Assembly (NCBI GenBank): GCA_036267835.1
Contig: DATAVF010000130.1
Coordinates: 554-64,553 of the forward strand
DNA: 64,000 nucleotides
Source: Caulobacteraceae bacterium
GTDB lineage: Bacteria; Pseudomonadota; Alphaproteobacteria; Caulobacterales; Caulobacteraceae
Direction of reading: 5' to 3'
The position numbers and the translations under genes are program-made. Below the pieces are notes generated by a model. That model searched no databases. It was not told the DNA's origin and was given only the letters and a program-made list of their open reading frames with translations. Positions 1 through 18,680 of this stretch are shown here, piece after piece. The stretch's first letter is position 1. Each line of letters begins with the position of its first letter.

Positions 1-703
1 AGACCAGCGGCACGCCGGGGTGTTCGACCAGGGCCTCGCCGACGGCGCGCTCGCCGACCAGCACGGTGGAGAGCCCGGCCGGCGCGTCGCCGAAGCGGGC
101 GGCGGCGCGCTCGAACAACGACTGGACGGCCAGCGCGGTCAGCGGCATCTTCTCCGACGGCTTCCACACCACCGGGTCGCCGCAGATGAAGGCCAGGGCC
201 GCGTTCCAGGCCCAGACGGCGACCGGGAAGTTGAAGGCGGTGATCACGCCGACCACGCCCAGCGGCTGCCACACCTCCATCATCCGGTGGTCAGGCCGCT
301 CGGTGGCCAGGGTCAGACCGAACAGCTGGCGCGAGAGGCCGACCGCGTAGTCGCAGATGTCGATCATCTCCTGGACCTCGCCCAGGCCCTCGGAGAGGGT
401 CTTGCCGGCTTCCAGGGTGACCAAGAGGCCGAGGTCGCCCTTGGCGGCGCGCAGTTCCTCGCCGAGGAGCCGCACCAGCTCGCCGCGGCGCGGCGCGGGG
501 ACCTTGCGCCACGCCAGGAAGGCTCCTTGAGCCGCGGCGATCGCGACCGCGGCGTCAGCAGGGGTCGCTTGGCGCAGCCGGGCGATTTCCTCGCCCGTGA
601 TCGGACTGCGCGCCGGGAGGTCGCCAGCTTCCAGCGTCACGCCGAGGCGGTCCAGCAGGGCGGTCGCTTCCTGAACGAGGCCGGGCTTGGCGTGCAGGGT
701 CAT
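1..703 (-). CDS. Aldehyde dehydrogenase, ALDH7 / piperideine-6-carboxylate (alpha-aminoadipate semialdehyde) dehydrogenase type; 5' part only, 3' end lies beyond the window edge
   Basis: Not in the ORF track because it runs off the window. Hand translation of the minus strand from ATG 703-701 gives MTLHAKPGLVQEATALLDRLGVTLEAGDLPARSPITGEEIARL...VTLEAGKTLSEGLGEVQEMIDICDYAVGLSRQLFGLTLAT with no stops. The EVQEMIDICDYAVGLSRQ block is characteristic of ALDH7/AmaB-type enzymes. ATGA start/stop overlap with the upstream gene (700-703). Confidence 0.8.
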   Translation of the reverse strand, partial: MTLHAKPGLVQEATALLDRLGVTLEAGDLPARSPITGEEIARLRQATPADAAVAIAAAQGAFLAWRKVPAPRRGELVRLLGEELRAAKGDLGLLVTLEAGKTLSEGLGEVQEMIDICDYAVGLSRQLFGLTLATERPDHRMMEVWQPLGVVGVITAFNFPVAVWAWNAALAFICGDPVVWKPSEKMPLTALAVQSLFERAAARFGDAPAGLSTVLVGERAVGEALVEHPGVPLV

Positions 704-1809
704 GCGGCGGCGCTCTGGCGGGCGGGGGCGGACTGGTCTTCCTGCGCATAGGCGCGGCCGAAGCGGTTGGCCAGGAAGTCGGCCAGCGCGATGTCTTCCT
801 GGCGCACGAAGCCGGCGACAGGCAGGCGTCCCTGCGCCAGCAGGTCGAGCACGGCGCAGAGGCTGGACGCGGTGGTGATCTGGATGGCCGACAGCATCTC
901 GCCGCCGATCTCGCGGGCGTAGATGCGGTTGGCGTAGGTTTCCTGCACCAGCCGCCCGCCCTTGAGGCCGGACACGGTGACGAAGACGATGACCACGTCC
1001 TGCAAGGTCGCCGGGACGGCGTTCTCCAGGATCTGCTTCAGCATCTCGCGGCTGTCGCGCAGGCGCAGGTCGTTGAGCAGGGCCTTCATGATCGCCGCGT
1101 GGCCGGGGTAGCGGATGGTGCGGTAGTTGAGGTTGCGCACCTTGCCGGCCAGCGTCTCGGTCAGGGTGCCCAGGCCGCCCGAGGTGTTGAAAGCCTCATA
1201 CTCGACGCCGTCGAGCGCCAGGCTCTCGCATTCCTCCAGCGCCCGCGACTGGCGCGCCTCGCCATCGACGATGGCCTCACACGGCTCGCAGTACTCGTTG
1301 ATCACCCCATCGGTGGACCAGGTGAGATTGTAGTTCAGCGCGTTGGACGGATAGCGGGGCAGGGCGCCGACCCGCAGCCGCACGTCGTGCAGGGTGTCGA
1401 AATGGCGGGCGAGGTCGGCGGCGACGATGGAGACGAAGCCGGGGGCGAGGCCGCACTGCGGGATCATGGCGGTGGCCGCGTCCTTGGCCATGGCCTTCAC
1501 CGCGTGGGTCGAACGGACGTCCTCGGTGAGATCGAGGTAATGCGCGCCGGCCGCCTTGGCCGCTTCGGCGACCTTGACGGTCAGGTGATAGGGCGCGGCG
1601 CTGAGCACGGCGAACTGGCCATGACAGGCAGCCGTGAGGGCTTTGGCATCGGCGACATCGAGGCGGCAGCGGCGCACGTGCCTGGGCAGCCGCGCCAGGG
1701 CTTCAGTCGACTGGTCGGCGACGGTGACCGCATAGTCGCCGGTGCGGGTCAGGAGGCCGGCGACGACCGCGCCGATCTTGCCGGCGCCGATGATCAGGAT
1801 CTCATGCAT
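700..1809 (-). CDS. Saccharopine dehydrogenase family protein (possible L-lysine 6-dehydrogenase)
   Basis: 369 aa. N-terminal Rossmann motif MHEILIIGAGKIGAVVAG. Overall saccharopine-dehydrogenase-like sequence. Translationally coupled to the ALDH7-type gene downstream. Confidence 0.8.
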   Translation of the reverse strand: MHEILIIGAGKIGAVVAGLLTRTGDYAVTVADQSTEALARLPRHVRRCRLDVADAKALTAACHGQFAVLSAAPYHLTVKVAEAAKAAGAHYLDLTEDVRSTHAVKAMAKDAATAMIPQCGLAPGFVSIVAADLARHFDTLHDVRLRVGALPRYPSNALNYNLTWSTDGVINEYCEPCEAIVDGEARQSRALEECESLALDGVEYEAFNTSGGLGTLTETLAGKVRNLNYRTIRYPGHAAIMKALLNDLRLRDSREMLKQILENAVPATLQDVVIVFVTVSGLKGGRLVQETYANRIYAREIGGEMLSAIQITTASSLCAVLDLLAQGRLPVAGFVRQEDIALADFLANRFGRAYAQEDQSAPARQSAAA

Positions 1810-1875: not shown

Positions 1876-4689
<2,814 letters not shown>

Positions 4690-4712
4690 TCCGGTCGAAG
4701 AACTCGCGCATG

Positions 4713-4740
4713 CCCCGCGCGGCTACGGCGCCGTGCGGGG
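4713..4740. terminator. Candidate stem-loop between convergent katG and the PLP-enzyme gene
   Basis: CCCCGCGCGG-CTACGGCG-CCGTGCGGGG: 10 bp stem with one G-T wobble and an 8 nt loop. No U-tract on either strand, so function is uncertain. Confidence 0.25.
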
Positions 4741-4799
4741 ACATCGCGCCCAGGTGGTTGCCTGGCCTCGAGAGGAACGGCAGGTAATCTGGAAGCTGC

Positions 4800-5918
4800 T
4801 CACCCATCGGCCGAGGGGGCGGCGTCCGGCTCGAACCAGGTCGCGATGCGCTCGGCGTGGGGACGCCAGTCCAGGTCGCGCGTCGCCAGCCACGCGTCGT
4901 CGAAATAGGTGTCCTCGTAGCGCTGGCCGCTGTCGCACAGCAGGGTGACCACGGACCCGGCCTCGCCCCGCTCAGTCATCTCGGCGATGATCTCGACGCA
5001 GGCGACGATGTTGGTCCCGGTCGAGCCGCCGACCCGGCGCCCGAGCCGGCGGCTGATCGCCCGCATGGCGCCGAGGCTGGCGGCATCCGGCACGGCGATC
5101 ATCCGATCGATCACCTCGGGGATGAACGAGGGCTCCACCTGCGCGCGGCCGACGCCTTCGATGCAGGAGCCGCACCCATCCTCCAGCCGTTCGATGGAGC
5201 GGTCGAGGAAGTGCCGGTGGAACACCGAGCCGACCGGGTCGGCCACGCAGAGCCGTGTCGCCTTGCGGGCGTAGCGGATGTAGCGGCCCAGGGTGGCGGA
5301 GGTGCCGCCGGTGCCGGCGCCGCAGACGATCCAGGCGGGTTCCGGCGCTTCCTCGCGCGCCATCTGGGTGAAGATGCTCTCGGCGATATTGTTGTTGCCA
5401 CGCCAGTCGGTGGCGCGCTCGGCATAGGTGAACTGGTCGAGGAAGTGGCCGCCGCATTCCCGCGCCAGCCGCGCCGCCTCCGCGGGCGCGTCCCTCGGAT
5501 CGTCGACGAAGTGAATCTCCGCGCCCTCGAACCGGATCGCCTCGAGCTTGGCGCGCGACGTGGCGCGCGGGGCCACCGCCACGAAGCGCAGGCCGATCAG
5601 GCGGGCGAAGTAGGCCTCCGACACCGCGGTCGAGCCGCTGGTGGCGTCGAAGAGGGTGGTGGCCCGGCCGATCCGGCCGTTGCAGAGGCCGTAGAGGATC
5701 AGCGAGCGCGCCAGCCGATGCTTGAGGCTGCCGCTCGGGTGGGTGGATTCATCCTTCAGGTAGAGGCGCACGCCCGGGGCGCGCGGCAGATCGAGCCGGA
5801 TCAGGTGGGTGTCGGCCGAGCGGCAGACGTCAGCGTCCAGCCGCTGCAGCGCGCCGCCGATCCACTCGCGCGCTGAACCTTCGACTTTCCCGAATTCGGG
5901 CTTCTGCATGGTGGGCAT
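4800..5918 (-). CDS. PLP-dependent cysteine synthase / cystathionine beta-synthase fold (fold-type II) enzyme, divergent subfamily
   Basis: 372 aa. Candidate PLP-lysine block YLKDESTHPSGSLKHR. Glycine loop VCGAGTGGTSATLGRY. Last gene of the 13241->4800 operon, 5 nt after the preceding stop. Confidence 0.85.
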   Translation of the reverse strand: MPTMQKPEFGKVEGSAREWIGGALQRLDADVCRSADTHLIRLDLPRAPGVRLYLKDESTHPSGSLKHRLARSLILYGLCNGRIGRATTLFDATSGSTAVSEAYFARLIGLRFVAVAPRATSRAKLEAIRFEGAEIHFVDDPRDAPAEAARLARECGGHFLDQFTYAERATDWRGNNNIAESIFTQMAREEAPEPAWIVCGAGTGGTSATLGRYIRYARKATRLCVADPVGSVFHRHFLDRSIERLEDGCGSCIEGVGRAQVEPSFIPEVIDRMIAVPDAASLGAMRAISRRLGRRVGGSTGTNIVACVEIIAEMTERGEAGSVVTLLCDSGQRYEDTYFDDAWLATRDLDWRPHAERIATWFEPDAAPSADG

Positions 5919-5923
5919 TCCGT

Positions 5924-6841
5924 TCAGGAGCCGATGGCGCTTGCGGCGCGGAGGTCGTCCCCGGACAGCACCCTGTCCAGGAAGGCGGTGGCCTCGGCGC
6001 GCATGGCGGTGCGGGCGCCCGACATCTTCGCGTTCAGCCCGGCCTTGCGGGCCAGCAGCGGGTCACCGGAGGCGTTCACGCGGCGCTGCAGCTCGGCGGT
6101 GACGCGACTTGCGTGGGTCGCGGCAGCTTGCGGATCCGCGTCGTCCGGCGCCGGACCCAGGTCGCCGATGACGCGCTCGTTCTGGTCCTGGATGAATTGG
6201 TGAAGCCTGGCGGTCTCCGCCTCGCCCCACCCATCGGCCCGAAGGATCCGCTCGCACGCAACGCCTTCCCAGGCCGAGAGCAGGTCGACGGCCGCGCCGG
6301 GCGCCCTGCCATAGTCCCACGCGCAGGCTGCCACGGCGCCGGCCGCCACCGCCTCTTCCTCCCCGGCGCCGTCGAGACGGGCGAGCCGCGTCCGCGAAGC
6401 GCGCCAATCCTGGCGCGCCACGCAGGTCCCGGCGGCGGCGCGCCGATGCAGCGCGATAACGTCGCTCGCCGCCGCGCTCGGCTCGGCTGAGGGCATCAGC
6501 GCCTGAAGGCAATCAGGGGCCGCTTCCCAGACCCAGATGGTCAGGAGATGCGAGGCCGCGTCCAACGTGTCGCCGGGATTGACCGCCGACAGGACTTCCC
6601 GCGCCAGCATCGCGGGTGAACGACCGGCGCCAAACCTGCGGACCAGGTGCGACAGCATCAGGACGAGCGCCGGCGGGAGACCGACCTGGGCCGCCCAAAC
6701 GACCAGATCGGATTGGGTGGCGTGGGGCGCGACCAGCGGGACGGCCGCTGATGCTTCGAGCGCCGCCAGCAAATCGGCCTTGAGGGCAGGGTCGCCGCGG
6801 AAGGCGCCGGCTCCCATTGGGCCGTGGTCAAGGTCAGGCAT
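5924..6841 (-). CDS. Uncharacterised protein, paralog 1 of a tandem triplet
   Basis: 305 aa, no signal peptide or TM segment seen, Ala/Leu-rich. Shares collinear blocks with the two upstream genes (GDPALKADLLAAL, WAAQVGLPPALVL, ALHRRAAAG, AWDYGRAPGAAVDLLSAWE, GWGEAE..RL, LGPAP, GDP). Confidence 0.7.
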   Translation of the reverse strand: MPDLDHGPMGAGAFRGDPALKADLLAALEASAAVPLVAPHATQSDLVVWAAQVGLPPALVLMLSHLVRRFGAGRSPAMLAREVLSAVNPGDTLDAASHLLTIWVWEAAPDCLQALMPSAEPSAAASDVIALHRRAAAGTCVARQDWRASRTRLARLDGAGEEEAVAAGAVAACAWDYGRAPGAAVDLLSAWEGVACERILRADGWGEAETARLHQFIQDQNERVIGDLGPAPDDADPQAAATHASRVTAELQRRVNASGDPLLARKAGLNAKMSGARTAMRAEATAFLDRVLSGDDLRAASAIGS

Positions 6842-6860
6842 CTGGGTGCGGGTCCTGCGG

Positions 6861-7754
6861 CTAGGGTTGGGCCGGGATGGGCGGCCGGCTGGTTGGGCGC
6901 AGCAGCGCGATCATCGCCTGCAGGCCTTGCCGCCGCCGTGTGGCCGCGGCCCCGGCGAACTGGGCCTGCAACGCCTTGTGCCGATCCCACGTCGCATCGC
7001 CGAGAGCGGACATCAGCCGATCAAGCCCGGTTTGCAGGTGGTCGACGTAGAGCGCGAAGGCGGCGGCGTCGGACCTATCCGGGCGCTGTCCGATGCCTTG
7101 CTCGAGGCGCGGTTTCACCTCAGCAAGCATGGTCGCGAGGCGGACGTCGTCGCCCTCGCTCCAGCCTGCGGCGCGCCGGATCCCCGTCCTCGACAGCCCC
7201 TCCCAGGCCTGCAACAGGTCACTCACGGCCCCGGGCGCCAATTCGAAATCCCAGGCGCCGGCGGCGATGGTCGCCATGGCCCTTGCCTGGTCGTCCTCGC
7301 CCTCGGCGAGCCGGCCCAGGCCGAGGCGCGCATCGCGCCACGCGTCGCGGGCGACCTCGCCACCTGCCGCCGCCCGCCGGTGCAGGGCCATAGCCGTGCC
7401 GGCGGCCTCGATGCAGTCGGGTGACGACAGCAGGGCGCGGAGCGGCGTCGGCGAGGCTTCCGACGCCCACACGACCCAGGCGTTCGGAACCCGCCCGGTC
7501 GTCGCGCCAGGCTCGATGGCGGCCAGAAATGCGTGGGCGTCGCCGATGGAAGCAGGGTCCGCGGCGAACGACCTCGTTGCGCAGAGGTGGGCGCCGAGGA
7601 GGGCGAGCGCCGGCGGCAGGCCGACGCGGTCCGCCCACGCGATCAGCTCGACGACGCTAGCGCCGGCTGGATCGACCAGCGGGCTGGGCGGGCTGGCTTC
7701 CAGGGCGGCGAGCGCCAGCGCCTTCGTCCCCGGATCGCCATGGAATGCACTCAT
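6861..7754 (-). CDS. Uncharacterised protein, paralog 2 of a tandem triplet
   Basis: 297 aa. Same block order (GDPGTKALALAAL, WADRVGLPPALALL, ALHRRAAAG, AWDFELAPGAVSDLLQAWE, GWSEGDDVRL). Confidence 0.7.
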   Translation of the reverse strand: MSAFHGDPGTKALALAALEASPPSPLVDPAGASVVELIAWADRVGLPPALALLGAHLCATRSFAADPASIGDAHAFLAAIEPGATTGRVPNAWVVWASEASPTPLRALLSSPDCIEAAGTAMALHRRAAAGGEVARDAWRDARLGLGRLAEGEDDQARAMATIAAGAWDFELAPGAVSDLLQAWEGLSRTGIRRAAGWSEGDDVRLATMLAEVKPRLEQGIGQRPDRSDAAAFALYVDHLQTGLDRLMSALGDATWDRHKALQAQFAGAAATRRRQGLQAMIALLRPTSRPPIPAQP

Positions 7755-7771
7755 GATCTGTTCGGTCGCCG

Positions 7772-8632
7772 CTAGTGAGACGCCGGCGATCGAAGGATCG
7801 CGACCAGGGCGGCGCGGGCCTGGTCGCGGAGCTCCGCCGCAGCGCGGGCGGTCGCGGTCGACATCTGGGCGTGGCGGCCGCTGATCGGATCGCCGAGGCC
7901 GTCGATGAGCCTCTGCATCTCGGCAACCAGGCGCCTGGCGTGGGGCAGGTGGTCCGCCTTGTCGCTATCGGGGGCCGGGCCCAGGCGCTCCTCGGCGAGC
8001 TTCATTTGATCCTGGCGGATCTGCAGCAGGCGCTTGTCGTCCGCCTCGGTCCAACCCAGCCGGTCGCGGATTCGCGTTTCGCGGGCGTCGTCCCAGGCGC
8101 CAAGCAGATCGACCACCGCGCCGGGGGTGGCGCGATAGTCCCATGCCGCGGCGGCCACCGCCTGTGCGACCTTGTCGCCGTCGGTCGCGAGCCGCGCCAC
8201 CGCGGCGCGCGCGGCGCGCCAGCGACCACGTTCGATCTCGACGCCGGCGGCGGCGCTGCGGTGCAACTCGGCGATCTCGCTCGCGGCGTGCTGAAGATCC
8301 GGGGCGGTGAGCATCGCGCCAAGCGGTTCGGGCGCGCTCTCCAGGGCCCAGATCGTCCACAGGTGGGCGGCGGCCTCAGCCTGGGCGCCCGGCTCGATCG
8401 CCCCGATGACGTCGCGGGCGAACTGCAGCGCCGGCGGCGCGTGAAGGGGCTCGACGACCAGGTGCGCCGTGAGCAGAACCAGCGCCGCCGGTAGTCCGAC
8501 TTCGTCCGCCCAGGCGACAAGTTCAGCTTCCTGGCTCCAGGTTGAGAGGGTGATCAGAGGCAGCCGGGCAGGTTCGTTCAGGGCATCGATCAGGTCCGCC
8601 TTTAGCGCCGGATCGTTGCGGTAGGCGATCAC
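7772..8632 (-). CDS. Uncharacterised protein, paralog 3 of a tandem triplet (GTG start)
   Basis: The ORF track gives 7772..8872, but its first 80 codons overlap the thioredoxin gene in another frame. GTG at 8632-8630 overlaps the thioredoxin TGA (GTGA) and gives (M)IAYRNDPALKADLIDAL..., aligning with the N-termini of paralogs 1 and 2. Confidence 0.65.
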   Translation of the reverse strand: MIAYRNDPALKADLIDALNEPARLPLITLSTWSQEAELVAWADEVGLPAALVLLTAHLVVEPLHAPPALQFARDVIGAIEPGAQAEAAAHLWTIWALESAPEPLGAMLTAPDLQHAASEIAELHRSAAAGVEIERGRWRAARAAVARLATDGDKVAQAVAAAAWDYRATPGAVVDLLGAWDDARETRIRDRLGWTEADDKRLLQIRQDQMKLAEERLGPAPDSDKADHLPHARRLVAEMQRLIDGLGDPISGRHAQMSTATARAAAELRDQARAALVAILRSPASH

Positions 8633-8964
8633 GCCCGCGATCCCGCCACCTTCTCGATCATCGCGGCGATCGTCGAACGCGGCGCGGCGCCGGCGAGGCG
8701 CTGGCGCACCTCGCCGCCTTCGAACAACAGCAGCGCCGGGATGCCCATCACGCCGTATCGCTGCTGGGTGGCCGGGTTTTCGTCGACGTTGAGCTTCACG
8801 ACCACGACTTCGCCTTCGTACTCGGACGCGATGTCCTTCAGCGCCGGCTCCATCGCCCGGCACGGTCCGCACCAGTCGGCATAGAAGTCGACGAGAACCG
8901 GCGTGGTCGCGGCGAGGACTTCGGCCTCGAAGGTGGCTTCGGTGACGTAGGAAAGGTCAGCCAT
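8629..8964 (-). CDS. Thioredoxin
   Basis: The last 111 codons of ORF 8629..10374 give MADLSYVTEATFEAEVL...VLVDFYADWCGPCRAMEP...GIPALLLFEGGEV with a canonical WCGPC active site and thioredoxin length. The rest of that 581 aa ORF is a shadow of the ABC gene. Confidence 0.9.
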   Translation of the reverse strand: MADLSYVTEATFEAEVLAATTPVLVDFYADWCGPCRAMEPALKDIASEYEGEVVVVKLNVDENPATQQRYGVMGIPALLLFEGGEVRQRLAGAAPRSTIAAMIEKVAGSRA

Positions 8965-8978
8965 CTGGTGGCTCCTGT

Positions 8979-10763
8979 TCAGGGGTCGGATGATTGTGCT
9001 GGGATCAGGATCGACGCGGCGGCGCGCCCGTTCGCGATATCGATGGCGGTAGTGTGGAAGCGCGCCACGGTGGGGCGGTGGGCCACGGAGACGATCGCGG
9101 CGCCGGGCAGTTCCTCGGTCAGCGCCCGGTAGACGTCGGCCTCGAGTTCGACGTCGAGGGCGCTGGTGGCCTCGTCGAGAAACAGGAAGTCCGGGGCGCG
9201 CAACAGGGCCCGAACCGCCGCCATGCGCTGCTGCTCGCCGGGCGAGAGAATCTGCCGCCAATGAGCTTGCTCGTCGAGGCGGTCGACGAAATGATCGAGC
9301 GAAAGCCGGCGCAAGGCGTCGACATAGCGGCCACGATCCGCCGGCGTCGGCTCCCGCGGATAGCTGAGCAGCTCGGCCAGGGCGCCGCTCGGCATGTAGC
9401 TGCGTTGCGGCAGGAACAGGATCCGGTCTCGCGCCGGCGTCTCGATGGCGCCCGCCCCGTAGGGCCAGAGGCCGGCGATGGCCCGCAGCAGCGTGCTCTT
9501 GCCGGCGCCGGAGCGGCCGCGCACCAGCACCCGGTCGCCGGACGCCACATCCAGGCGATCGACCTCGAGCAGACGCTCGCCATCCGGCAGGTCGATGCGC
9601 AAGCCGCGCAAGGCGAGCTGCTTGCCGCCCTCGACGAGGGTGATGTCGCTGGTGATGGGGCGCTTGAGCTCGGTATCGAAGAAGCGGATCCGGGCCACGC
9701 CGGCGCGCAGGGCGGCGATGCTTGCATAAAGGCGCGCGAAGAAGCCGAACCCGCTCAGCACCATGTTGAAGGCGAGGGTCGCCGCCGCCATCTGGCCGAC
9801 GGTCATTTGCCCCGCCAGGATGTGCGGGATGCTGAGCAGCACCGGCACGAGCTTGGGAATGAGCATGTTCACCAGCTCGTTGAAGGCGTTCAACTTGACC
9901 TGCGCGATCGTGTATCGCCGCCAGTTGACGCCGATCAGGCCGAAGAGGCCCAGCGCGCGTTGCCGCTCGCGCTCGGCGCCGCGCTCGAAGGCGATGGCCT
10001 CGCTGTACTCGCGCACCTGTCCCAGGCCGTGGCGGAAGTCGGCTTCGAGCCGCTGGCGGCTGACCTCGATCTGGGTGATCGGGCGGCCGATGAAGTGGGC
10101 GCCGATCGTCCACAGGGTGGCGAACACCAGGGTGGCGACCAGCATGTCGGCCGGAACCGTGATCGGAATGCCGATCGGCGCCAGCGACAGCGGATGCGAC
10201 GCCTGCCAGATCAGCCCGAGGGAAAGCACCACCGTGGCGATGGAGCCGACCACGCTCGGCGCCAGCTCGATCACGCTCTCGGCGATGAAGAAGAAGTCTT
10301 CCTGGATACGCTGTTCCGGATTCTCGATCCGGCGATCTCGCTGGAGCGCCAGGAACCGGTTCTGGCTCAGCCACTGGGTGACGAACTCCAGCGTGTACTT
10401 CGCCCGCAGGCGCCAGCGCAGAAAGTAGGTCGCGGCCAGCAGCGTCTGGCCGACGACGAGCACGGCGCTCAGGATCACGAGCAGCGAGATGAGAATGCGC
10501 TGCACCTTGGCCGCGTTCAGGGCCACCAGCGCGTCGGTCATCGCGCCGGTCTGCACGTTCAGCTGGACGATCAGAACGGCCGCCAGCAGGCTCGCGAAGA
10601 AGAGGATCAGGGTCAGGGCGGTGGCGACCCAGGGATCGGACTTGAAGTAGCGGCCGAGCAACCCGCCGAGATAGGCGGCGTCGCGCCAGATCGGGTCGTT
10701 GCGCAGTTCAGGCGGCCGCTTGTTGGCGGCCGCCTCTGCCGGACCGATCGATTCCGAACTCAT
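8979..10763 (-). CDS. Fused permease-ATPase ABC transporter, YddA / SbmA-BacA / ABCD-like transmembrane domain
   Basis: 594 aa. TMD carries IENPEQRIQEDFFF (the NPDQRI-type motif of the ABC_membrane_2/SbmA-BacA group). NBD has Walker A GRSGAGKST, signature LSPGEQQR and Walker B FLFLDEATSALD. Confidence 0.9.
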   Translation of the reverse strand: MSSESIGPAEAAANKRPPELRNDPIWRDAAYLGGLLGRYFKSDPWVATALTLILFFASLLAAVLIVQLNVQTGAMTDALVALNAAKVQRILISLLVILSAVLVVGQTLLAATYFLRWRLRAKYTLEFVTQWLSQNRFLALQRDRRIENPEQRIQEDFFFIAESVIELAPSVVGSIATVVLSLGLIWQASHPLSLAPIGIPITVPADMLVATLVFATLWTIGAHFIGRPITQIEVSRQRLEADFRHGLGQVREYSEAIAFERGAERERQRALGLFGLIGVNWRRYTIAQVKLNAFNELVNMLIPKLVPVLLSIPHILAGQMTVGQMAAATLAFNMVLSGFGFFARLYASIAALRAGVARIRFFDTELKRPITSDITLVEGGKQLALRGLRIDLPDGERLLEVDRLDVASGDRVLVRGRSGAGKSTLLRAIAGLWPYGAGAIETPARDRILFLPQRSYMPSGALAELLSYPREPTPADRGRYVDALRRLSLDHFVDRLDEQAHWRQILSPGEQQRMAAVRALLRAPDFLFLDEATSALDVELEADVYRALTEELPGAAIVSVAHRPTVARFHTTAIDIANGRAAASILIPAQSSDP

Positions 10764-10778
10764 GTGGAGGCGGTATCC

Positions 10779-13241
10779 TTAGAACTTCGCGTCGACCACG
10801 AACCGGAATGTCCGGGGCTCCGCCCGCACCAATTGAAGGTCGCCGCCGGACAGTTCGTAATTCTGCCGCCCGAAAAGATTGTCGACGGTCAGATTGAACC
10901 GGAGGTTCCGCAAGGAATAACCGATGGATGCATCGAAGGTAACGTAGTCGTTGTTGAACTTGACGCTGTTATCGATGCCCGACGTATTGGTGAAGGTCGG
11001 CGTATCCGCCGCCAGCACGCCGGACTGAGCGATGTAGTAGCCGTCGTGGTAGTTGCCACCAAATCCGACGTCGATCTTGCTGCGGTCGCCCACATCGAAG
11101 GTCTTCACCACCCAGACGTTCGCCACGTTCTTCGGCGCTTCCTGGATCGGCTGCCCGTCCACGAAGGTTCCGGTGGTGTAGGTGTAGCCCGCGGTGATCT
11201 TGACGCTGCGCGAGAGCGCGCCCTCCGCCGACAGCTCGAGCCCCTGCGAACTCTCTCCGGGACCGGCGATGGAAAAGCCCGCATGGAGGGGGTTCGGATC
11301 GTTCAGCGCGCTGTTGCTGGTCGTATAGCTGAAGTACGACCCGTTCAGGTCGAGCCGATCGGAAAACAGGCTGGCTTTCAGGCCTGCTTCGTAACGCGAG
11401 ACAAGCGTCGGCGGTATGGACGCGCCGCTGAAGGTCATGGTCCCCGCGGGCTGCGGGCTGAAAGCCTGGTTGTAGCTGCCGTAGATCGAGAGCGCCTTGG
11501 TCACGTCGAACACCAGGCCGAGGTTCGGCGTCCACTTGCTGACGGCATTGGTGGTGGTCGAGCTGCCGAAGGGCGTCGAGCGATCATTGTACCAGGAGCC
11601 GCGTTCGCCGATCAGGGCGTGGACCCGGCCCCAGGTGATCTGATCCTGGAAGAAGAGGCCGTACTCCTCGGTTTGATCGTCGTCCTTGCTGCCCTGGTAG
11701 GGAACCGCCGGCAGCGGCGGGGGCGCGGCGCCGAACATCTCGAAGGCGGGCAAGACCGCGAGCGCGCGCCGGTCATCAACCAGGCTGTAGTCGCCGCCGA
11801 CGATGACTTGATGCTCCAGCGGCCCGGTGTCGAACTTGCTGTACAGGTCCACATGGTGGCTGCTGGTGGTCTGCGGCTCATAGATGCCGAGCGACACAAA
11901 GACCACGAACGGTCCCGCGAATTCAGCCGGAACCCCTACGGCGAGCGCCTCGCTGCCGGTCTGGTAGATGCCCTTGGCGCGCAGTTCCAGCGTCCAATCC
12001 GGGGACGAGACCAGGGTGTGCTCGAAGTTGTAGCCGAACTGCGAGAAGCTCGTCTGGATCAGATTGTTGGGATTGTAGAGCGTTCCGTATGACTGGATCG
12101 GCACGGTGACGGCGGCGACCGGCGTGCTCGGCAGCTGGACGTAGTCTTCGCGCGCGAACGGGGTCTGCTGCGAGAAGTATTCGAAATTCAGGTCGAGTTT
12201 GGTGTTGTCCGACCGATAGCCCAGCATCGGATTGATCACATACTGGGAGGGCCGGTTGCCGCCGGCCGGATTGTCGTCAGCGTGCTGGGCCAGCCCGATC
12301 ACACGGAAGTACAGCCCATCGACGCCGGGAATCGCGCCGCTGACGTCGCCCGAGAGCGTCCACTCATTGCCGCTGCCGTAGCCGGCCGAGACCTCGGTCG
12401 GGCTGATGCCGTTGGCGCGCTTGGGCACGTAGTTGAGCAGACCTCCGCCCACCTCGGTGCCGGTCAGCAGGGACGCCGGGCCCTTCAGCACTTCGACGCT
12501 GTCGAGCAGGACGGTGGGCTCGTTCTGGGCCAGGGAGCCGTTGCGCAGGCCATCCGTGAAGGTGATGCCGCCCTGGGCGCCGCCGGTGCTGGTCGGACCG
12601 AAGTTGACCTGGTAGCTGCCGCCGCTCTCTTCCAGCACCGCGCCGGGGATGTTCCGGATCGCCTCGCTCAGAGAATAGACGTTCTCGCTCTGGATGACGT
12701 CCTGAGGCACGACATCGACGGTGGCCGGCGTCTCGTGCAGCGGCGTATTCGTCATCGTCGCCGCGGACGAGAAGTTCTCCTTGAAGGCCTGCCGGCGCGC
12801 GGTGACGACGATCGCGCCGACGTCGGTGGCCCCGGCTTCGCGCGCCAGCCGGATTTCGCCGTTGGTCAGACTGACCACCTGCCAGCCCGTGCCCTTCAGC
12901 GCCAGCACCACGGCCTCGTGCAGACTCATCCGTCCCGACACGCCCGGCGACTGGACATCCAGTAGCCCACTGTTGTCGGTCCGGTACTTCGCGCCGGACT
13001 GCGCCGTGATCGCGTCCAGCACGGTCGCCAGCGAGCCGGGCGCCACCTTGAAGTCGAAGTTGGCGATGGACTGGCCCCGCAGATCCTCGGAGGCCGCCTG
13101 CGTGGCTTGCGCCTGCGAGTTTGGCGAGGTGGCGCTGGGGGTTGTGACGCCTTGCGCCAGCGCGTCGGTCGCGTGGAATGCCAGGATCGACTGGCAGATC
13201 AGCGTGGCCGCGATAGAAATATAGATTCTCTTGGAAAGCAT
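10779..13241 (-). CDS. TonB-dependent receptor with N-terminal STN (signalling) domain (TonB-dependent transducer type)
   Basis: True start is the ATG at 13241 (MLSKRIYISIAATLICQSILAFHATDALA signal peptide). STN-like block FDFKVAPGSLATVLDAITAQSGAKY...SLHEAVVLALKGTGW. Plug VEVLKGPASLLTG. Barrel ends ...FRFVVDAKF. The 1112 aa ORF-track extension upstream is rejected. Confidence 0.9.
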   Translation of the reverse strand: MLSKRIYISIAATLICQSILAFHATDALAQGVTTPSATSPNSQAQATQAASEDLRGQSIANFDFKVAPGSLATVLDAITAQSGAKYRTDNSGLLDVQSPGVSGRMSLHEAVVLALKGTGWQVVSLTNGEIRLAREAGATDVGAIVVTARRQAFKENFSSAATMTNTPLHETPATVDVVPQDVIQSENVYSLSEAIRNIPGAVLEESGGSYQVNFGPTSTGGAQGGITFTDGLRNGSLAQNEPTVLLDSVEVLKGPASLLTGTEVGGGLLNYVPKRANGISPTEVSAGYGSGNEWTLSGDVSGAIPGVDGLYFRVIGLAQHADDNPAGGNRPSQYVINPMLGYRSDNTKLDLNFEYFSQQTPFAREDYVQLPSTPVAAVTVPIQSYGTLYNPNNLIQTSFSQFGYNFEHTLVSSPDWTLELRAKGIYQTGSEALAVGVPAEFAGPFVVFVSLGIYEPQTTSSHHVDLYSKFDTGPLEHQVIVGGDYSLVDDRRALAVLPAFEMFGAAPPPLPAVPYQGSKDDDQTEEYGLFFQDQITWGRVHALIGERGSWYNDRSTPFGSSTTTNAVSKWTPNLGLVFDVTKALSIYGSYNQAFSPQPAGTMTFSGASIPPTLVSRYEAGLKASLFSDRLDLNGSYFSYTTSNSALNDPNPLHAGFSIAGPGESSQGLELSAEGALSRSVKITAGYTYTTGTFVDGQPIQEAPKNVANVWVVKTFDVGDRSKIDVGFGGNYHDGYYIAQSGVLAADTPTFTNTSGIDNSVKFNNDYVTFDASIGYSLRNLRFNLTVDNLFGRQNYELSGGDLQLVRAEPRTFRFVVDAKF

Positions 13242-13460
13242 TGTCGCCCCGGCGTTTCGTGCAAGATCAACACTTCCCGACAGGACTGTCGGTTTCGCTG
13301 ATCTGCGATCCCCTCCAATCAACGGCGCGTGACTGAACACGCGCGCGCTGGCTAGCTCGGCGGCTACTTTTTGTGTCTGTTGTAGTCCCCAGCATGAACG
13401 TATAACCGCCAAGAGCGTCCGTCTTGCGTATGCCGGGACGATTGATTGTCTGAGAGTGTA

Positions 13461-14417
13461 ATGAGCAGGGCGACGGCTGTCCGGGAATGGGCGAGCGGAT
13501 TGGAGCCGATCTTCGGAGCGCATCGCATCGAGGACGACGCCCCGGACTCGCAGGTTCGCGAGATCACCACCGGCCAGCGCGGCCTGGTGAAGTTCTGGCG
13601 GGTCCGCCATGGGGCGCAGAAGGTGTTTGTCCGGGGAACCGCGCGCGGCCCGGACGAGATGCGCGTTCTGGTCAGGCGGTTCGGCGCCGAGAAGGTCCTC
13701 GACCTCGTGCGCAGTGGCTGCCTGCTGTTGCTCGCGGTGGAGGAAGGCTCCGCCAAGCTGGATCTCTACAACGGGCCGGTGGTGCTTGGGCCCGGAGATG
13801 CGCTGGTCGTGACCGCGATGGAGCCGTTCGTGTTCTCGACTCCCGGCGCTTTCGCGGCGGTCTGGGTCGAACTGCCGGTCTGGTGGGTCATCGAGCTCTG
13901 CCGCGGCAAGATGCACGGCGCGCGGCGACGCCTGGACGGCTCGCGCGGCACCACGACCGTGTTGCGGAGCGCGCTTCACACCCTGCTGGAGGATGGCCGG
14001 GACGCCGAGGAGACAGACCAGCTCGTGGACCTGTTCGGCGACATCCTGGCGCGCTGCCTGATCATCGAGGTCGCCGAAGAGGCCGACCTGCCGGGGCCGA
14101 TCGACCGGATCAATCACTTCATCTCAGTCAATTTCCGCACGCCAGGCCTGGCGCCGCCGGACGCCGCGCGCGCCCTCGGATGCTCTCTGAGCAGCCTTCA
14201 CAAGAGCTGCGCCGCCGTCGGTGCGACCTTCGGCGCCATGCTGGCGAACATGCGGCTATCGGTAGCCGCCTATAAGCTGAGCCGAACGTCCGAGAGCATC
14301 TCGGCCATCGCTTACGATTGCGGATTCTCGTCGCTTCCGCACTTCTGCCACGCCTTCAAGGCGCGCTACGGCGTGACGGCCGGCAGCCTGCGGCGACAGC
14401 ATGCGGCAAGAGCCTGA
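13461..14417 (+). CDS. AraC family transcriptional regulator
   Basis: C-terminal double HTH (ISAIAYDCGFSSLPHFCHAFKARYGVTAGSLRR). ATG at 13461 preceded by GAGAG. The ORF-track start at 13446 is a TTG. Divergent from the TonB-receptor operon. Confidence 0.85.
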   Translation: MSRATAVREWASGLEPIFGAHRIEDDAPDSQVREITTGQRGLVKFWRVRHGAQKVFVRGTARGPDEMRVLVRRFGAEKVLDLVRSGCLLLLAVEEGSAKLDLYNGPVVLGPGDALVVTAMEPFVFSTPGAFAAVWVELPVWWVIELCRGKMHGARRRLDGSRGTTTVLRSALHTLLEDGRDAEETDQLVDLFGDILARCLIIEVAEEADLPGPIDRINHFISVNFRTPGLAPPDAARALGCSLSSLHKSCAAVGATFGAMLANMRLSVAAYKLSRTSESISAIAYDCGFSSLPHFCHAFKARYGVTAGSLRRQHAARA

Positions 14418-14443: not shown

Positions 14444-15520
14444 CTAGGCGCGGCCGCTGGCGATCGTCACCTTGATGTCTTGGCCGCCGCCAAGCGCTTC
14501 GAAAGCGGCGGCGACGCCGGCGCGGCCGACGGTCCGGGATGTCATCGCCGCTGCGTCGATCCGGCCCTCGGCGATGTCCGCCAGCACCTGGGCGAACTCG
14601 GGGGCGGTGTAGGCGGCGACGAAGCGCAGGGTGAGTTGCTTGTTGATCGCGACCATCGGCTCGAAGTGGTCCTGCTCCATGCAGACGCCGACCACGATCA
14701 CTTGGGCGCCCGGAGCGACGCCCTCGATGATGCCCTGGATGACGCCGGGCGCGCCGACGCACTCGAACACGATCGGGCGGCGTACGCGGCGGCCGGCAAG
14801 CTGGGCGGCTTCGCGCTCGAGCATCGGCACGATCACGCCTTGCGCCGGCCATTGCAGGTGCGGCGACTGGACGGCGGGGTCGATCACCAGATCCGCGCCC
14901 AGGCGCTCGGCGGCGGCGCGGCGCAGCGCCGAGTAGTCCGCCGCCACGATCGGGCCGAAGCCTCTCGCCTTCAGGGCCGCGATCACCGCCAGCCCGACCG
15001 GCCCGCAGCCGATCACCATGGCGACGCTGTCCTGGTCGAGGTCGGCCTGCGCCACCGCGTGGGCGCCGACCGCGAACGGCTCGACCGCCGCGGCGTGGGC
15101 GTCGGGGATGTGGTCGGGCACCGCCATCAGCATCGAGGCGTCGACGCAAACCAGTTCGCCGTAGCCGCCGGGGAACCGGTGAGAGAGGCCCACCGTCTCG
15201 CGGCCGTTGGGACCGGTCGCGTAGGGCAGGGCGATGACCCGGGCGCCCGGCTCGAAGCGCCGCTCGGCGCCCGGGCCATAATCCAGCACCTGGCCGCAGA
15301 ATTCGTGGCCGAAGACGATGTCGCGCGCCGGGTCGATGCCGACGCGGCGGCCGGCCTTGACGGCGGCGTCGGCGACGCGCTGGGCGAAGCGATGGACATG
15401 CAGGTCGGAGCCGCAGATGCCGCAGGCCAGGGTCTTCAGCCGCACCTGGCCGTGTCCCGGGATCGGATCCTCGACCTCGGCGCAGATCAGGGCGCCGGCG
15501 CGGCGAACGACTGCTTGCAT
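14444..15520 (-). CDS. Zinc-dependent alcohol dehydrogenase (MDR family)
   Basis: 358 aa. LACGICGSDLHV zinc/catalytic motif and GCGPVGL Rossmann motif. 1-nt start/stop overlap with the upstream gene. Confidence 0.9.
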   Translation of the reverse strand: MQAVVRRAGALICAEVEDPIPGHGQVRLKTLACGICGSDLHVHRFAQRVADAAVKAGRRVGIDPARDIVFGHEFCGQVLDYGPGAERRFEPGARVIALPYATGPNGRETVGLSHRFPGGYGELVCVDASMLMAVPDHIPDAHAAAVEPFAVGAHAVAQADLDQDSVAMVIGCGPVGLAVIAALKARGFGPIVAADYSALRRAAAERLGADLVIDPAVQSPHLQWPAQGVIVPMLEREAAQLAGRRVRRPIVFECVGAPGVIQGIIEGVAPGAQVIVVGVCMEQDHFEPMVAINKQLTLRFVAAYTAPEFAQVLADIAEGRIDAAAMTSRTVGRAGVAAAFEALGGGQDIKVTIASGRA

Positions 15521-16596
15521 CAGGCGTCTCCCTTCAGGATGCGCTGCACGATCGCGGCGCCGAGGTCGTGGGTGCTGGCGCGCCCGCCCATGTCGGGCGT
15601 CAGCGGCGCGCCCGGGGCGGTCAGGGTTGCCTCGATGGCGGCGACGATGGCTGCGCCGGCTTCCGGCTCGCCCAGATGGTCGAGCATCATGGCGGCGGAC
15701 CAGATCTGGCCGACCGGGTTGGCGACGCCCTGGCCAGCGATGTCGGGCGCCGAGCCGTGCACGGGCTCGAACATCGACGGGTGCGTGCGCTCGGGGTTGA
15801 TGTTGCCGGACGGCGCGACGGCGATGGTGCCGGTCACGCCCGAGCCGAGGTCGGAGAGGATGTCGCCGAAGAGGTTGCTCGCGACCACCACGTCAAAGCG
15901 CTGCGGGTGCAGGGCAAAGCGCGCCGCCAGGATGTCGATGTGGTGCTGCTCTGTGGCGATGTCCGGGTAGCGCGCAGCCACGTCGGCGAAGCGCTCGTCC
16001 CAGTAGGGCATCGAATAGTAGATGCCGTTGGACTTGGTGGCCGAGGCCACGCGGGACTTGCCGAGCCGGCGGGCCAGCTCGAAGGCGTAGGTCATGATCC
16101 GCTCGCAGCCGTGCCGGGTGAAGATGGCGGTCTGCAGCACCATCTCGTTCGGCGCGCCCTCGAACTGGCGTCCGCCAACCTGCGAATATTCGCCCTCGCT
16201 GTTCTCGCGCACGATCCAGAAGTCGATGTCGCCGGGTTCAACGTCGCGAAGCGGCGAGCGCACGCCGCGCAGCAGCCGCACCGGGCGCAGGTTGACGTAC
16301 TGATCGAAGCTGCGCCGGATCGGGATCAATAGGCCCCAGAGCGAGACGTGATCCGGTACGCCGGGGAAGCCGACGGCGCCCAGGAAGATGGCGTCATGGT
16401 CGGCAAGGCGGGCGATGCCGTCGGCCGGCATCATCGCGCCGGTGGCCTTGTAGGTCTCGCAGCTCCAGTCGAAATGGCGGTAGGTCAGGACGAAGCCGAA
16501 CCGGGCCGCCGCGGCCTCCAGCGCCGCCAGGCCCTCGGCCATCACTTCGACCCCGATCCCGTCGCCGGGAATGACGGCGATCTCGTAGCGCTTCAT
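15520..16596 (-). CDS. Tartrate dehydrogenase/decarboxylase-like (isocitrate/isopropylmalate dehydrogenase family)
   Basis: 358 aa. MKRYEIAVIPGDGIGVEV N-terminus and overall beta-decarboxylating dehydrogenase pattern. ATGA overlap with the upstream aldolase gene. Confidence 0.85.
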   Translation of the reverse strand: MKRYEIAVIPGDGIGVEVMAEGLAALEAAAARFGFVLTYRHFDWSCETYKATGAMMPADGIARLADHDAIFLGAVGFPGVPDHVSLWGLLIPIRRSFDQYVNLRPVRLLRGVRSPLRDVEPGDIDFWIVRENSEGEYSQVGGRQFEGAPNEMVLQTAIFTRHGCERIMTYAFELARRLGKSRVASATKSNGIYYSMPYWDERFADVAARYPDIATEQHHIDILAARFALHPQRFDVVVASNLFGDILSDLGSGVTGTIAVAPSGNINPERTHPSMFEPVHGSAPDIAGQGVANPVGQIWSAAMMLDHLGEPEAGAAIVAAIEATLTAPGAPLTPDMGGRASTHDLGAAIVQRILKGDA

Positions 16597-17336
16597 TGCC
16601 GGTAGTCCGCGCCCATGCGGTCGAGCTTTCGCAGCAGGGCCGGCCAGAGATACTTGTCGGCGACCGGTTGCGGGTCGGCCGAGCCCTGTTCCGCGGTCAC
16701 CTGGCGCACGGCCTGGTTGGGCCGGGTCAGCGGGCGGTCGCCGGCCAGGGCCGCGACCTGCATCTGGCAGGCGCGCTCCAGCCGGTACATGCGCTGGAAG
16801 GTGGTGGCGATGCTCGGGCCGCAGGTCAGCGTGCCGTGGTTGCGCAGCAGCATGAAGCTCCGCGCGCCAAGGTCGGCCACCAGCCTCGGCCGCTCGTCGT
16901 GGTCGAAGGCCACCCCTTCGTAGGCGTGATAGGCCAGCTGGTCGCAGATCAGCATGGCCTCCTGGTGCAGCGGCAAGAGGCCCTCTTGCTGGCAGGAGAC
17001 GCCGGTGCCAGCCACGGTGTGCAGGTGCATGACGCAGTGCGCGTCCTGGCGCGCCGCATGGACGGCGGAATGGATGGTGAAGCCGGCGGTGTTGATCAGG
17101 TAGGGCGAGGGCGCGACGATCTCGCCGTCGAGATCGACCTTGACCAGCGACGAGGCGGTCACCTCCTCGAACAGCAGGCCGAACGGGTTGAGCAGGAAAT
17201 GGCGTTCGGGGCCGGGAATGCGCACCGACAGGTGGGTGTAGAGCAGGTCGTCCCAGCCCATCAGCGCCACCATGCGGTAGCAGGCCGCGAGGTCCACGCG
17301 CAGCGCCGCCTCCACCTCGCCCATTTCCGCCGCCAT
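16593..17336 (-). CDS. Class II aldolase/adducin family protein
   Basis: The last 247 codons of ORF 16593..18443. Start ATG at 17336 is preceded by GGGAGG. Contains FTIHSAVHAAR..CVMHLHT (metal-binding His cluster typical of the family). Confidence 0.85.
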   Translation of the reverse strand: MAAEMGEVEAALRVDLAACYRMVALMGWDDLLYTHLSVRIPGPERHFLLNPFGLLFEEVTASSLVKVDLDGEIVAPSPYLINTAGFTIHSAVHAARQDAHCVMHLHTVAGTGVSCQQEGLLPLHQEAMLICDQLAYHAYEGVAFDHDERPRLVADLGARSFMLLRNHGTLTCGPSIATTFQRMYRLERACQMQVAALAGDRPLTRPNQAVRQVTAEQGSADPQPVADKYLWPALLRKLDRMGADYRQ

Positions 17337-17390
17337 CCTTGCGCCTCCCGCACCGTTCGCCCGCCGGAGCATTCGCCTCAGCCGCGCCGG

Positions 17391-17420
17391 ATTGTAAATA
17401 GTGTAATAAATGGTATCAAC
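17391..17420. promoter_or_regulatory. AT-rich box in the aldolase/TauD divergent intergenic region, contains ATAGTGTAATAAAT
   Basis: ATTGTAAATAGTGTAATAAATGGTATCAAC stands out in GC-rich DNA. Shares TTA-N-ACTAT (reverse strand) with boxes at 20076 and 20182. Confidence 0.3.
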
Positions 17421-17453
17421 CCGCCAGCGAGCGTTTGAGACAGGAGACTTAAG

Positions 17454-18497: not shown

Positions 18498-18515
18498 GGC
18501 GGTGACCGCAGAGTT

Positions 18516-18563
18516 CCTTCTCCCGCTCCGGGAGGAGGTGGCGCCGTAGGCGTCGGATGAGGG
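18516..18563. repeat. REP-like GC-rich palindromic element, copy 1
   Basis: CCTTCTCCCGCTCCGGGAGGAGGTGGCGCCGTAGGCGTCGGATGAGGG. Internally self-complementary. Inverted relative to copy 2. Confidence 0.55.
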
Positions 18564-18629
18564 TCATCCTCCGCACAACGACGTTTCGGCGCGAGCGCAC
18601 CACCTCGAAGAGCCGGTCCGCGGATAGGT

Positions 18630-18674
18630 CCCCTCATCCGGCGCTTCGCGCCACCTTCTCCCGGGGGGAGAAGG
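18630..18674. repeat. REP-like GC-rich palindromic element, copy 2 (inverted)
   Basis: CCCCTCATCCGGCGCTTCGCGCCACCTTCTCCCGGGGGGAGAAGG. Its reverse complement aligns with copy 1 (CCTTCTCCC...GGTGGCGC...CGGATGAGGG). Confidence 0.55.
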
Positions 18675-18680
18675 GGCGCC

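Follow-up and report, generated by a model that had tools for sequence, protein, structure and literature searches.

A small uncharacterised family of predicted all-helical proteins coupled to a dedicated thioredoxin in Alpha- and Betaproteobacteria

Introduction

Transporters of the SbmA/BacA/BclA/Rv1819c type take up hydrophilic peptides, among them NCR peptides rich in cysteine, microcins and bleomycin. The partners of thioredoxin are normally enzymes with redox cysteines of their own. In Mycobacterium tuberculosis, Cds1 (Rv3684) makes H2S from cysteine (PMC8389258). Relatives of these proteins are encoded side by side in a 64,000-nucleotide stretch of DNA, termed the window here, from a Caulobacteraceae bacterium (assembly GCA_036267835.1, contig DATAVF010000130.1, positions 554 to 64,553, forward strand). 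Among them lie three consecutive genes of one uncharacterised protein family, designated family X (X1, X2 and X3), to which attention was drawn by an original prediction made from the sequence. The defining trait of the family, missed in that prediction, is its strict coupling to a dedicated thioredoxin. With a probability of about 0.75, X is a functional partner of this thioredoxin in an uptake and catabolic locus.

Coupling of family X to a dedicated thioredoxin

The three X genes are arranged head to tail in the order X1, X2, X3 (5924-8632), directly after the thioredoxin gene:

8629..8964, minus strand: dedicated thioredoxin, 111 aa, active site WCGPC (Pfam PF00085, E = 1e-30; TIGR01068, 109.9 bits against a cut-off of 96.8)
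7772..8632, minus strand: X1, first copy, open reading frame (ORF) of 286 aa with a GTG start
6861..7754, minus strand: X2, second copy, 297 aa, of a separate old paralog clade
5924..6841, minus strand: X3, third copy, 305 aa (297 aa from an internal ATG at 6817), of a third old clade

By its TIGR01068 score above the cut-off and its CxxC motif the thioredoxin is of the TrxA type, and its stop codon overlaps the start of X1 (GTGA). Related loci were collected by exact-protein look-ups, one genome scan and a DNA-pattern scan of metagenomes, and were annotated by tblastn, hidden Markov models (HMMs) and Pfam. The degenerate DNA pattern, representing WRxxR...AxxWD....P....D....W, yielded 27 loci, about 10 of which were without X by tblastn and were treated as chance; the genome scan, with the alignment of the three paralogs, found a single genome, that of Sphingomonas fuzhouensis. 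In all 28 non-redundant X loci with upstream DNA, from both Alpha- and Betaproteobacteria, a thioredoxin of 107-115 aa is encoded directly upstream of an X gene. These loci include Sphingomonas fuzhouensis, a Sphingomonas metagenome-assembled genome (MAG), Brevundimonas MAGs, Herbaspirillum seropedicae and Pandoraea thiooxydans. A 4-nt overlap joins thioredoxin and X genes in the window and in 13 further called pairs; in two betaproteobacterial genomes a 3-nt gap separates them.

The CxxC motif is kept in all 26 paired thioredoxins, as WCGPC, WCAPC, WCMPC, GCGLC or TCGPC, and thioredoxin reductase is encoded in or beside some of the X loci; the operon thioredoxin has therefore probably retained its redox chemistry. 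The thioredoxins of the operon type form a tight group of 111-aa proteins with at least 59% identity, compared with 52-58% for ordinary TrxA. Non-canonical active sites (GCGLC, WCAPC, WCMPC, TCGPC) occur in the thioredoxins of loci L002/L003/L004, L005, L007, L009, L016 and L019, the GCGLC type going together with a gene order that includes an AsnC regulator and an aminotransferase. A variant order, X-thioredoxin-X, is seen in L020, L021 and L023, in which an X gene of a divergent "pre" clade lies upstream of the thioredoxin gene and another X gene downstream.

The coupling also occurs as a natural in-frame fusion. Protein P0131 (402 aa, with the unusual active site CPLC), found on two Brevundimonas contigs (MGH3711674.1 / MGH7021901.1) and annotated "thioredoxin family protein", carries a thioredoxin domain at residues 9-101 followed by X. 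Its AlphaFold2 model (pLDDT 89.2, pTM 0.75) has well-folded domains and a linker of lower confidence (block-mean pLDDT 66-74), compatible both with rigid docking of the two domains and with its absence. When this model was compared by Foldseek, only the thioredoxin fold was matched (TM 0.88 and root-mean-square deviation 1.4 Å to E. coli TrxA-type structures). A second candidate fusion, P0081, was rejected, since its thioredoxin appears to be frameshifted in the C-terminal half. Taken across the loci, the thioredoxin-X pair forms the core shared by all, and the genes around it for import and peptidases are specific to particular clades.

Reality of the three genes and extent of the family

In pairwise BLASTP with compositional adjustment the three products align over approximately their full length, with 41% identity between X1 and X2 (E = 1e-53), 43% between X1 and X3 (E = 6e-52) and 42% between X2 and X3 (E = 8e-45). 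The window has a G+C content of about 70-73% and many long spurious ORFs on both strands, and the X proteins consist of 22% Ala, all of which could have favoured an artefact, i.e., frames that are not real genes or a similarity of composition only. The local alignment scores of the copies are, however, 474-529 versus 50 +/- 9 in 300 shuffles (z = 46-59), so that the Ala-rich composition is not the source of the similarity. The E-values, of the order of 1e-45 or better with compositional adjustment, argue in the same direction, as do ratios of nonsynonymous to synonymous substitution rates (dN/dS) of 0.23-0.37, the 205 representative clusters of the same length recovered by profile, a structural model with a mean predicted local distance difference test (pLDDT) score of 95.6, and a gene order kept across two proteobacterial classes. 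Composition by codon position is also that of coding frames in a high-GC genome: third-position G+C (GC3) is 0.84-0.86, and the lowest values are at the second position. An artefact is thus excluded, and the original claim of three real paralogous genes holds. The motif blocks that it listed occur in the claimed order in all three copies, with small deviations (WRASR and LVLM in X3; GAWD, IGQRP and GDA in X2), and the alignment likewise bears out that DPALKADL is the same in copies 1 and 3.

X1 is identical to the NCBI entry "hypothetical protein VHW60_08675". A near-identical second assembly of the locus is present in the database (P0004, a thioredoxin 99% identical, on a 64,787-nt JGI contig; P0172, an X2 representative with few residue changes), so the host organism has been sampled at least twice.

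When a profile of the three window copies was run exhaustively with HMMER against 1.84 billion representatives, it matched 205 clusters at E <= 1e-3, among them 88 at E <= 1e-10 and 26 at E <= 1e-30. Nearly all members measure 270-310 aa, and X is a genuine but small family of fixed domain size. The exhaustive search was needed because Ala-rich words saturate the candidate list of a word-indexed search, which recovered just two matches with X1 as query and five with a 60-sequence profile, and missed the window's own paralogs. Look-ups of the clusters gave mostly singleton metagenome proteins and "hypothetical protein" entries; the named taxa are Brevundimonas MAGs, Pandoraea thiooxydans (WP_047212825.1), Herbaspirillum seropedicae SmR1 (ADJ64318.1), H. 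rubrisubalbicans and Roseateles.

No family matched X1-X3 at E <= 1 in Pfam, NCBIfam or PADLOC, and the single PHROG match had an E-value of 0.069. Among 60 diverse X members compared with Pfam no common domain was found; the matches were scattered over one member each, the best at 1.6e-4, and the weak leads among them (HXXSHH, MST/DinB, Linocin and others) were discarded as chance matches of single members. The X profiles gave nothing significant against PDB sequences, the best match (E = 0.021) being to coiled-coil-like proteins. A mobile origin was also considered and dropped, as tblastn gave no match in plasmid or phage collections.

Predicted structure and conserved residues

The AlphaFold2 model of X1, computed from the 60-sequence alignment, is all-helical, with 15 helices, the mean pLDDT given above and a predicted TM-score (pTM) of 0.91. 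Foldseek found no match to it in the PDB at E <= 0.001 (best TM about 0.2). In BFVD, weak resemblance was detected to A0A6J5QCR4 (E = 2.8e-3, TM 0.45/0.51) and A0A6J5Q9T4 (probability 0.96, TM 0.57), both from uncultured Caudovirales; these two uncharacterised proteins are the sole structural resemblance found for the model in PDB and BFVD. The X protein thus belongs to no described family or fold, in keeping with its original description as an uncharacterised, cytoplasmic, all-helical family.

Eight residues are conserved in at least 90% of the 60 diverse members: W138, R139, R142, W164 (100%), D165, P170, D175 and W194. These near-invariant residues are located at loops and helix ends within residues 121-195 of the model and are kept in all three window copies. 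L54, A161, W180 and an N-terminal AF..D...K motif are also well conserved, and the C-terminal third of the protein consists of two long, poorly conserved helices. The family is acidic, with a median isoelectric point of 5.2 and a median net charge of -10. No alignment column contains Cys in more than 9 of 60 members (15%), and nine of the 60, including X1, have no Cys at all. Being without a conserved cysteine, X is not itself a redox target of thioredoxin. Of the histidines only H124 is fairly well conserved, in 43 of the 60 members.

Several known helical families were tried and rejected. Membership in the DinB/mycothiol-S-transferase family was dismissed, since PF04978 matched one member of 60 (E = 0.006), H124 is found in 43 of 60 and no DinB-fold match was obtained with Foldseek. 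A chaperedoxin of the CnoX/YbbN type was dismissed as well, since no tetratricopeptide repeat (TPR) profile matched save in one member at E = 0.077, and Foldseek finds the thioredoxin domain only. Heme oxygenase-like and glycoside-hydrolase-like helical enzymes, also considered, gave no fold match, and H124 is not invariant.

History of the copies and selection

In the most closely related locus, L039, on a metagenome contig (thioredoxin 92% and ATP-binding cassette (ABC) protein 95% identical), orthologs of X1 (83%) and X2 (81%) are followed directly by the gene for the pyridoxal phosphate (PLP) enzyme, and there is no X3. In a neighbour-joining tree of 37 X proteins, X1, X2 and X3 fall into three clades, each with members from other loci. 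The X2 clade is common to L015, L025, L029, L033 and L006, and the X3 clade to L009 and to the second copies of L015, L025, L029 and L006, so that in these two-copy loci (L015, L025, L029, L006) an X2-type gene precedes an X3-type gene. One copy is found in most loci and two in many; the combinations seen are X1 alone, X1 with X2, X2 with X3, and all three. The copies are therefore old and diverged, as had been proposed, and not the product of a recent amplification; they have been gained and lost independently, and hence they form no obligate trio. Of the two explanations offered originally, a hetero-oligomeric scaffold or three related specificities, the former fails as an obligate assembly, given the lack of X3 in L039, the one to three copies per locus and their varying combinations, and the latter is the better candidate.

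Because synonymous sites are saturated at 41-43% amino-acid identity, dN/dS was taken from the orthologs in the window and L039 in place of the paralogs. The values were 0.10 for the ABC protein, 0.13 for the TonB-dependent receptor (TBDR), 0.21 for the thioredoxin, 0.22 for the PLP enzyme (PALP), 0.23 for X1 and 0.37 for X2, and all six genes are under purifying selection. The X genes have nevertheless undergone two to four times more amino-acid change than their neighbours (dN of 0.09-0.12 versus 0.025-0.05). Between more distant loci, identities are 40-54% for X, compared with 82-86% for thioredoxin and 69-75% for the ABC protein. Faster evolution of X, together with its variable copy number, fits a specificity module.

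The window operon and related loci

The remaining genes of the operon and its presumed regulator are as follows:

10779..13241, minus strand: TonB-dependent outer-membrane receptor, 820 aa from MLSKRIY, first gene of the operon (Pfam Plug, TonB_dep_Rec_b-barrel)
8979..10763, minus strand: fused permease/ATPase ABC protein of the SbmA/BacA - Rv1819c type (Pfam ABC_membrane_2, 3e-31; SbmA_BacA, 1e-17; ABC_tran, 4e-17)
4800..5918, minus strand: Cds1-like PLP enzyme with a cysteine-synthase fold, last gene of the operon (Pfam PALP, 7e-50)
13446..14417, plus strand: AraC-family regulator, divergent (start at 13446 or 13487; by tblastn)

The genes are tightly packed, with spacers of 17 and 19 nt between the X copies and 5 nt before the PLP gene. 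Together with the GTGA overlap and the lack of any terminator-like site inside the operon, this upholds the original placing of the X genes in one operon with the thioredoxin and the PLP enzyme. Control by a cobalamin or SAM riboswitch was rejected, with no Rfam match in the whole window. The AraC gene is 44-46% identical by tblastn to genes in the same position in L005, L035 and L040, which carry Pfam HTH_18/HTH_AraC.

All three Pfam domains of the ABC protein score above their cut-offs, in agreement with the SbmA/BacA - Rv1819c type, and its best match among PDB sequences is 6TQE/6TQF (Rv1819c; E = 2e-74, residues 92-580, covering both domains). It is predicted to be an inner-membrane importer. 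A TonB receptor gene is also located upstream of the ABC gene in sister loci. The PLP enzyme is a close relative of Cds1 that scores below the equivalog cut-off. In L005, L007, L039 and L040 the operon likewise ends with a homolog of it, and L015 and L031 gave partial matches.

The common alphaproteobacterial order consists of an AraC gene and then TBDR, ABC, thioredoxin and one to three X genes. Varying sets follow X, drawn from a cytoplasmic S9 peptidase, an M3 oligopeptidase, TldD/PmbA, thioredoxin reductase (TrxB) and the Cds1-like PLP enzyme. TldD/PmbA act on microcin B17-type peptides. No signal peptides were found in the S9, M3 and TldD/PmbA peptidases adjoining X. Representative orders, with Trx for thioredoxin, are:

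L005: TBDR-ABC-Trx-X-S9-PALP
L006: TBDR-ABC-Trx-X-X-S9
L007 (Sphingomonas fuzhouensis): TBDR-ABC-PmbA-TldD-Trx-X-TrxB-M3-PALP
L037: AraC-M3-PmbA-TldD-TBDR-ABC-Trx-X
L040: AraC-TBDR-Trx-X-S9-S9-PALP
L002-L004 (second architecture): Trx(GCGLC)-X-AsnC-aminotransferase-S9

L002, a compost metagenome contig (RCUP01000094.1), carries three separate thioredoxin-X pairs within 21 kb (3922..5171, 9669..10882 and 17683..18875), near which are found TrxB, extracytoplasmic function (ECF) sigma/FecR and AsnC regulators, an aminotransferase and an S9 peptidase. In Herbaspirillum (L041) and Pandoraea (L042) the pair has as neighbours a MocR-type regulator, FecR and an ECF sigma factor; within 10 kb of the Pandoraea pair there are also genes for M24 and M1 peptidases and for a signalling TonB receptor. 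The H. seropedicae pair (thioredoxin 9665..9997, X 10001..10900) lies some 1.3 kb away from the portion of the nif region that encodes cysteine desulfurase and Fe-S assembly functions (a NifS/NifU/IscA/HscA/Fdx/NifV/NifW/FixAB block); this proximity may be another link to the chemistry of cysteine sulfur, or chance.

Beyond the operon, a catalase-peroxidase gene (1918..4689, plus strand; KatG-like, Pfam peroxidase 1e-69, 923-aa ORF) converges on its end, 110 nt from the PLP stop, which places a redox-stress gene beside the thioredoxin operon. A saccharopine-dehydrogenase-like gene lies about 3 kb past the operon end (700..1809, minus strand) and is 53% identical over its full length to one in Pandoraea thiooxydans (L042, 7939..9042, minus strand), which stands divergently about 620 nt upstream of the thioredoxin-X pair. 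It may represent another conserved neighbour, or the match may be coincidental. Past the AraC gene, 14444..18443 (minus strand) encodes a Zn-dependent alcohol dehydrogenase, a member of the isocitrate/isopropylmalate-dehydrogenase family and a protein of 616 aa whose C-terminal domain is a class II aldolase.

Proposed function and alternative explanations

The operon probably imports and breaks down cysteine-containing peptides. Under the presumed control of the divergently encoded AraC-family regulator, the TonB-dependent receptor would carry the substrate across the outer membrane, and the Rv1819c/BacA-type ABC importer would then move it to the cytoplasm. There the thioredoxin would reduce its disulfide bond or bonds, general peptidases (or, in sister loci, the cytoplasmic ones encoded in the locus) would cut it, and the Cds1-like PLP enzyme would dispose of, or use, the freed cysteine. 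We infer a disulfide-containing, probably peptidic substrate from the Rv1819c/BacA-type importer, from the cytoplasmic peptidases of sister loci, from the thioredoxin, accompanied in some loci by its reductase, and from the Cds1-like enzyme. We likewise infer the inward direction of transport, a physical thioredoxin-X complex and an adaptor role for X. As a non-redox partner of thioredoxin, X would bind the imported disulfide peptide in a conserved Trp/Arg/Asp-rich pocket (WRxxR ... AxxWD....PG...D....W ... GW) and present it to the CxxC motif, and the paralogs would cover different substrates. The specific mechanism, with X as a substrate-binding adaptor, is put forward tentatively, from genomic context, at somewhat less than even odds. 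A fuller version is rather doubtful as a whole: thioredoxin and X would form a two-component disulfide reductase, in which a Cys-free subunit of new fold recognises the substrate through two Arg, two Asp and several Trp, and thioredoxin performs the chemistry. Its substrates would be imported cystine-type or cysteine-rich peptide disulfides, taken as a sulfur or nutrient source or as cysteine-rich antimicrobial peptides to be neutralised, with X1, X2 and X3 as interchangeable specificity modules.

The main alternative, itself rather unlikely, is that X is an enzyme of new fold, e.g., a lyase or hydrolase acting to open or trim the imported compound, with thioredoxin preparing the substrate or keeping it reduced and the paralogs serving as isozymes. 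Placed as they are at loops and helix ends, the invariant Asp165, Asp175, Arg139 and Arg142 resemble an active site; in the window and L039, X is the sole non-transport, non-redox product between import and the PLP enzyme; and the peptidases are variable or absent among the loci where thioredoxin-X is constant. Yet the family has no conserved His (H124 being the nearest case), Ser, Cys, Lys or metal-binding motif and no kinship in fold or sequence to any enzyme. A protein that evolves fast and varies in copy number is more typically a binding or specificity subunit, and the translational coupling to thioredoxin and the fusion suggest a stoichiometric complex. An obligate hetero-oligomeric scaffold of X1, X2 and X3 is improbable: the copy numbers of one to three per locus, the presence of X1 and X2 only in L039 and of X2 with X3 or a single copy elsewhere, and the contig with three thioredoxin-X pairs, each with its own thioredoxin, outweigh the co-transcription of three diverged copies with short spacers and the pair of long, poorly conserved C-terminal helices that could mediate oligomerisation. 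Very improbable, finally, is a regulator or sensor, i.e., a thioredoxin-gated modulator of the nearby AraC, ECF-sigma, FecR or MocR proteins, or an inhibitor holding thioredoxin inactive. Regulators are always near (AraC in the window, L005, L035 and L040; ECF sigma/FecR/MocR in L041 and L042; AsnC in L002-L004), but their type varies among the loci where X is constant, X has no DNA-binding or known anti-sigma domain, and one to three copies per operon would be unusual for a regulator.

The proposed pathway, with X as adaptor, has to accommodate several observations that weigh against it. The import context is not universal, because the betaproteobacterial thioredoxin-X pair lacks an adjacent ABC importer. 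The 64-kb window gave no match to a peptidase, so that peptide breakdown in the window host would need housekeeping enzymes. The PLP enzyme matches the Cds1 model NF052478 over its full length (2e-156), with 520.6 bits below the 600-bit cut-off. The conserved Asp/Arg/Trp cluster of X could equally be a catalytic site, and a literature search on the X family, its accessions, the gene combination and Herbaspirillum found nothing of relevance.

Should the partnership be confirmed, a conserved, Cys-free family of unrecognised fold, translationally coupled and once fused to a private thioredoxin, would represent a new way to direct thioredoxin to substrates, and the locus would be the first described BacA/Rv1819c-type importer wired to disulfide reduction, proteolysis and cysteine breakdown. 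The findings bear on soil- and plant-associated proteobacteria that use or resist cysteine-rich peptides. X is also an unannotated domain for Pfam and NCBIfam with a clear genomic signature, and cultured hosts exist in Sphingomonas fuzhouensis SGZ-02, Herbaspirillum seropedicae SmR1 and Pandoraea thiooxydans.

Comparison with known systems

Like X, PAPS reductase, MsrA/B, peroxiredoxins, ArsC and ribonucleotide reductase are thioredoxin-adjacent and expected to be thioredoxin-dependent. These proteins use redox-active cysteines of their own, in contrast to X, in which none is conserved and of which X1 has none. Closer in this respect are the phage T7 DNA polymerase gp5-TrxA and CnoX/YbbN, in which thioredoxin is likewise paired or fused with a partner without redox cysteines, but neither in sequence nor in fold is X related to gp5 or the CnoX TPR domain. 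Since thioredoxin and X are paired, and once fused, and X is without redox cysteines, a stoichiometric complex is suggested rather than a transient target of electron transfer.

The window PLP enzyme resembles Cds1 of M. tuberculosis over its full length, a likeness known here from sequence and below the equivalog cut-off; to our knowledge, the mycobacterial Cds1 is not part of such an operon. The ABC protein shares with SbmA/BacA/BclA/Rv1819c the SbmA_BacA and ABC_membrane_2 domain fused to an ATPase. Unlike the known SbmA/BacA systems, which are single transporters without a dedicated thioredoxin, X, peptidase set or cysteine desulfhydrase, it is part of an operon headed by a TonB receptor with an AraC gene alongside, and its transport direction and substrate are putative. 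At the level of the locus, this is a known kind of system, a TonB-dependent, BacA/Rv1819c-type uptake locus, in which the two-component reductase of thioredoxin and X would, if confirmed, be new.

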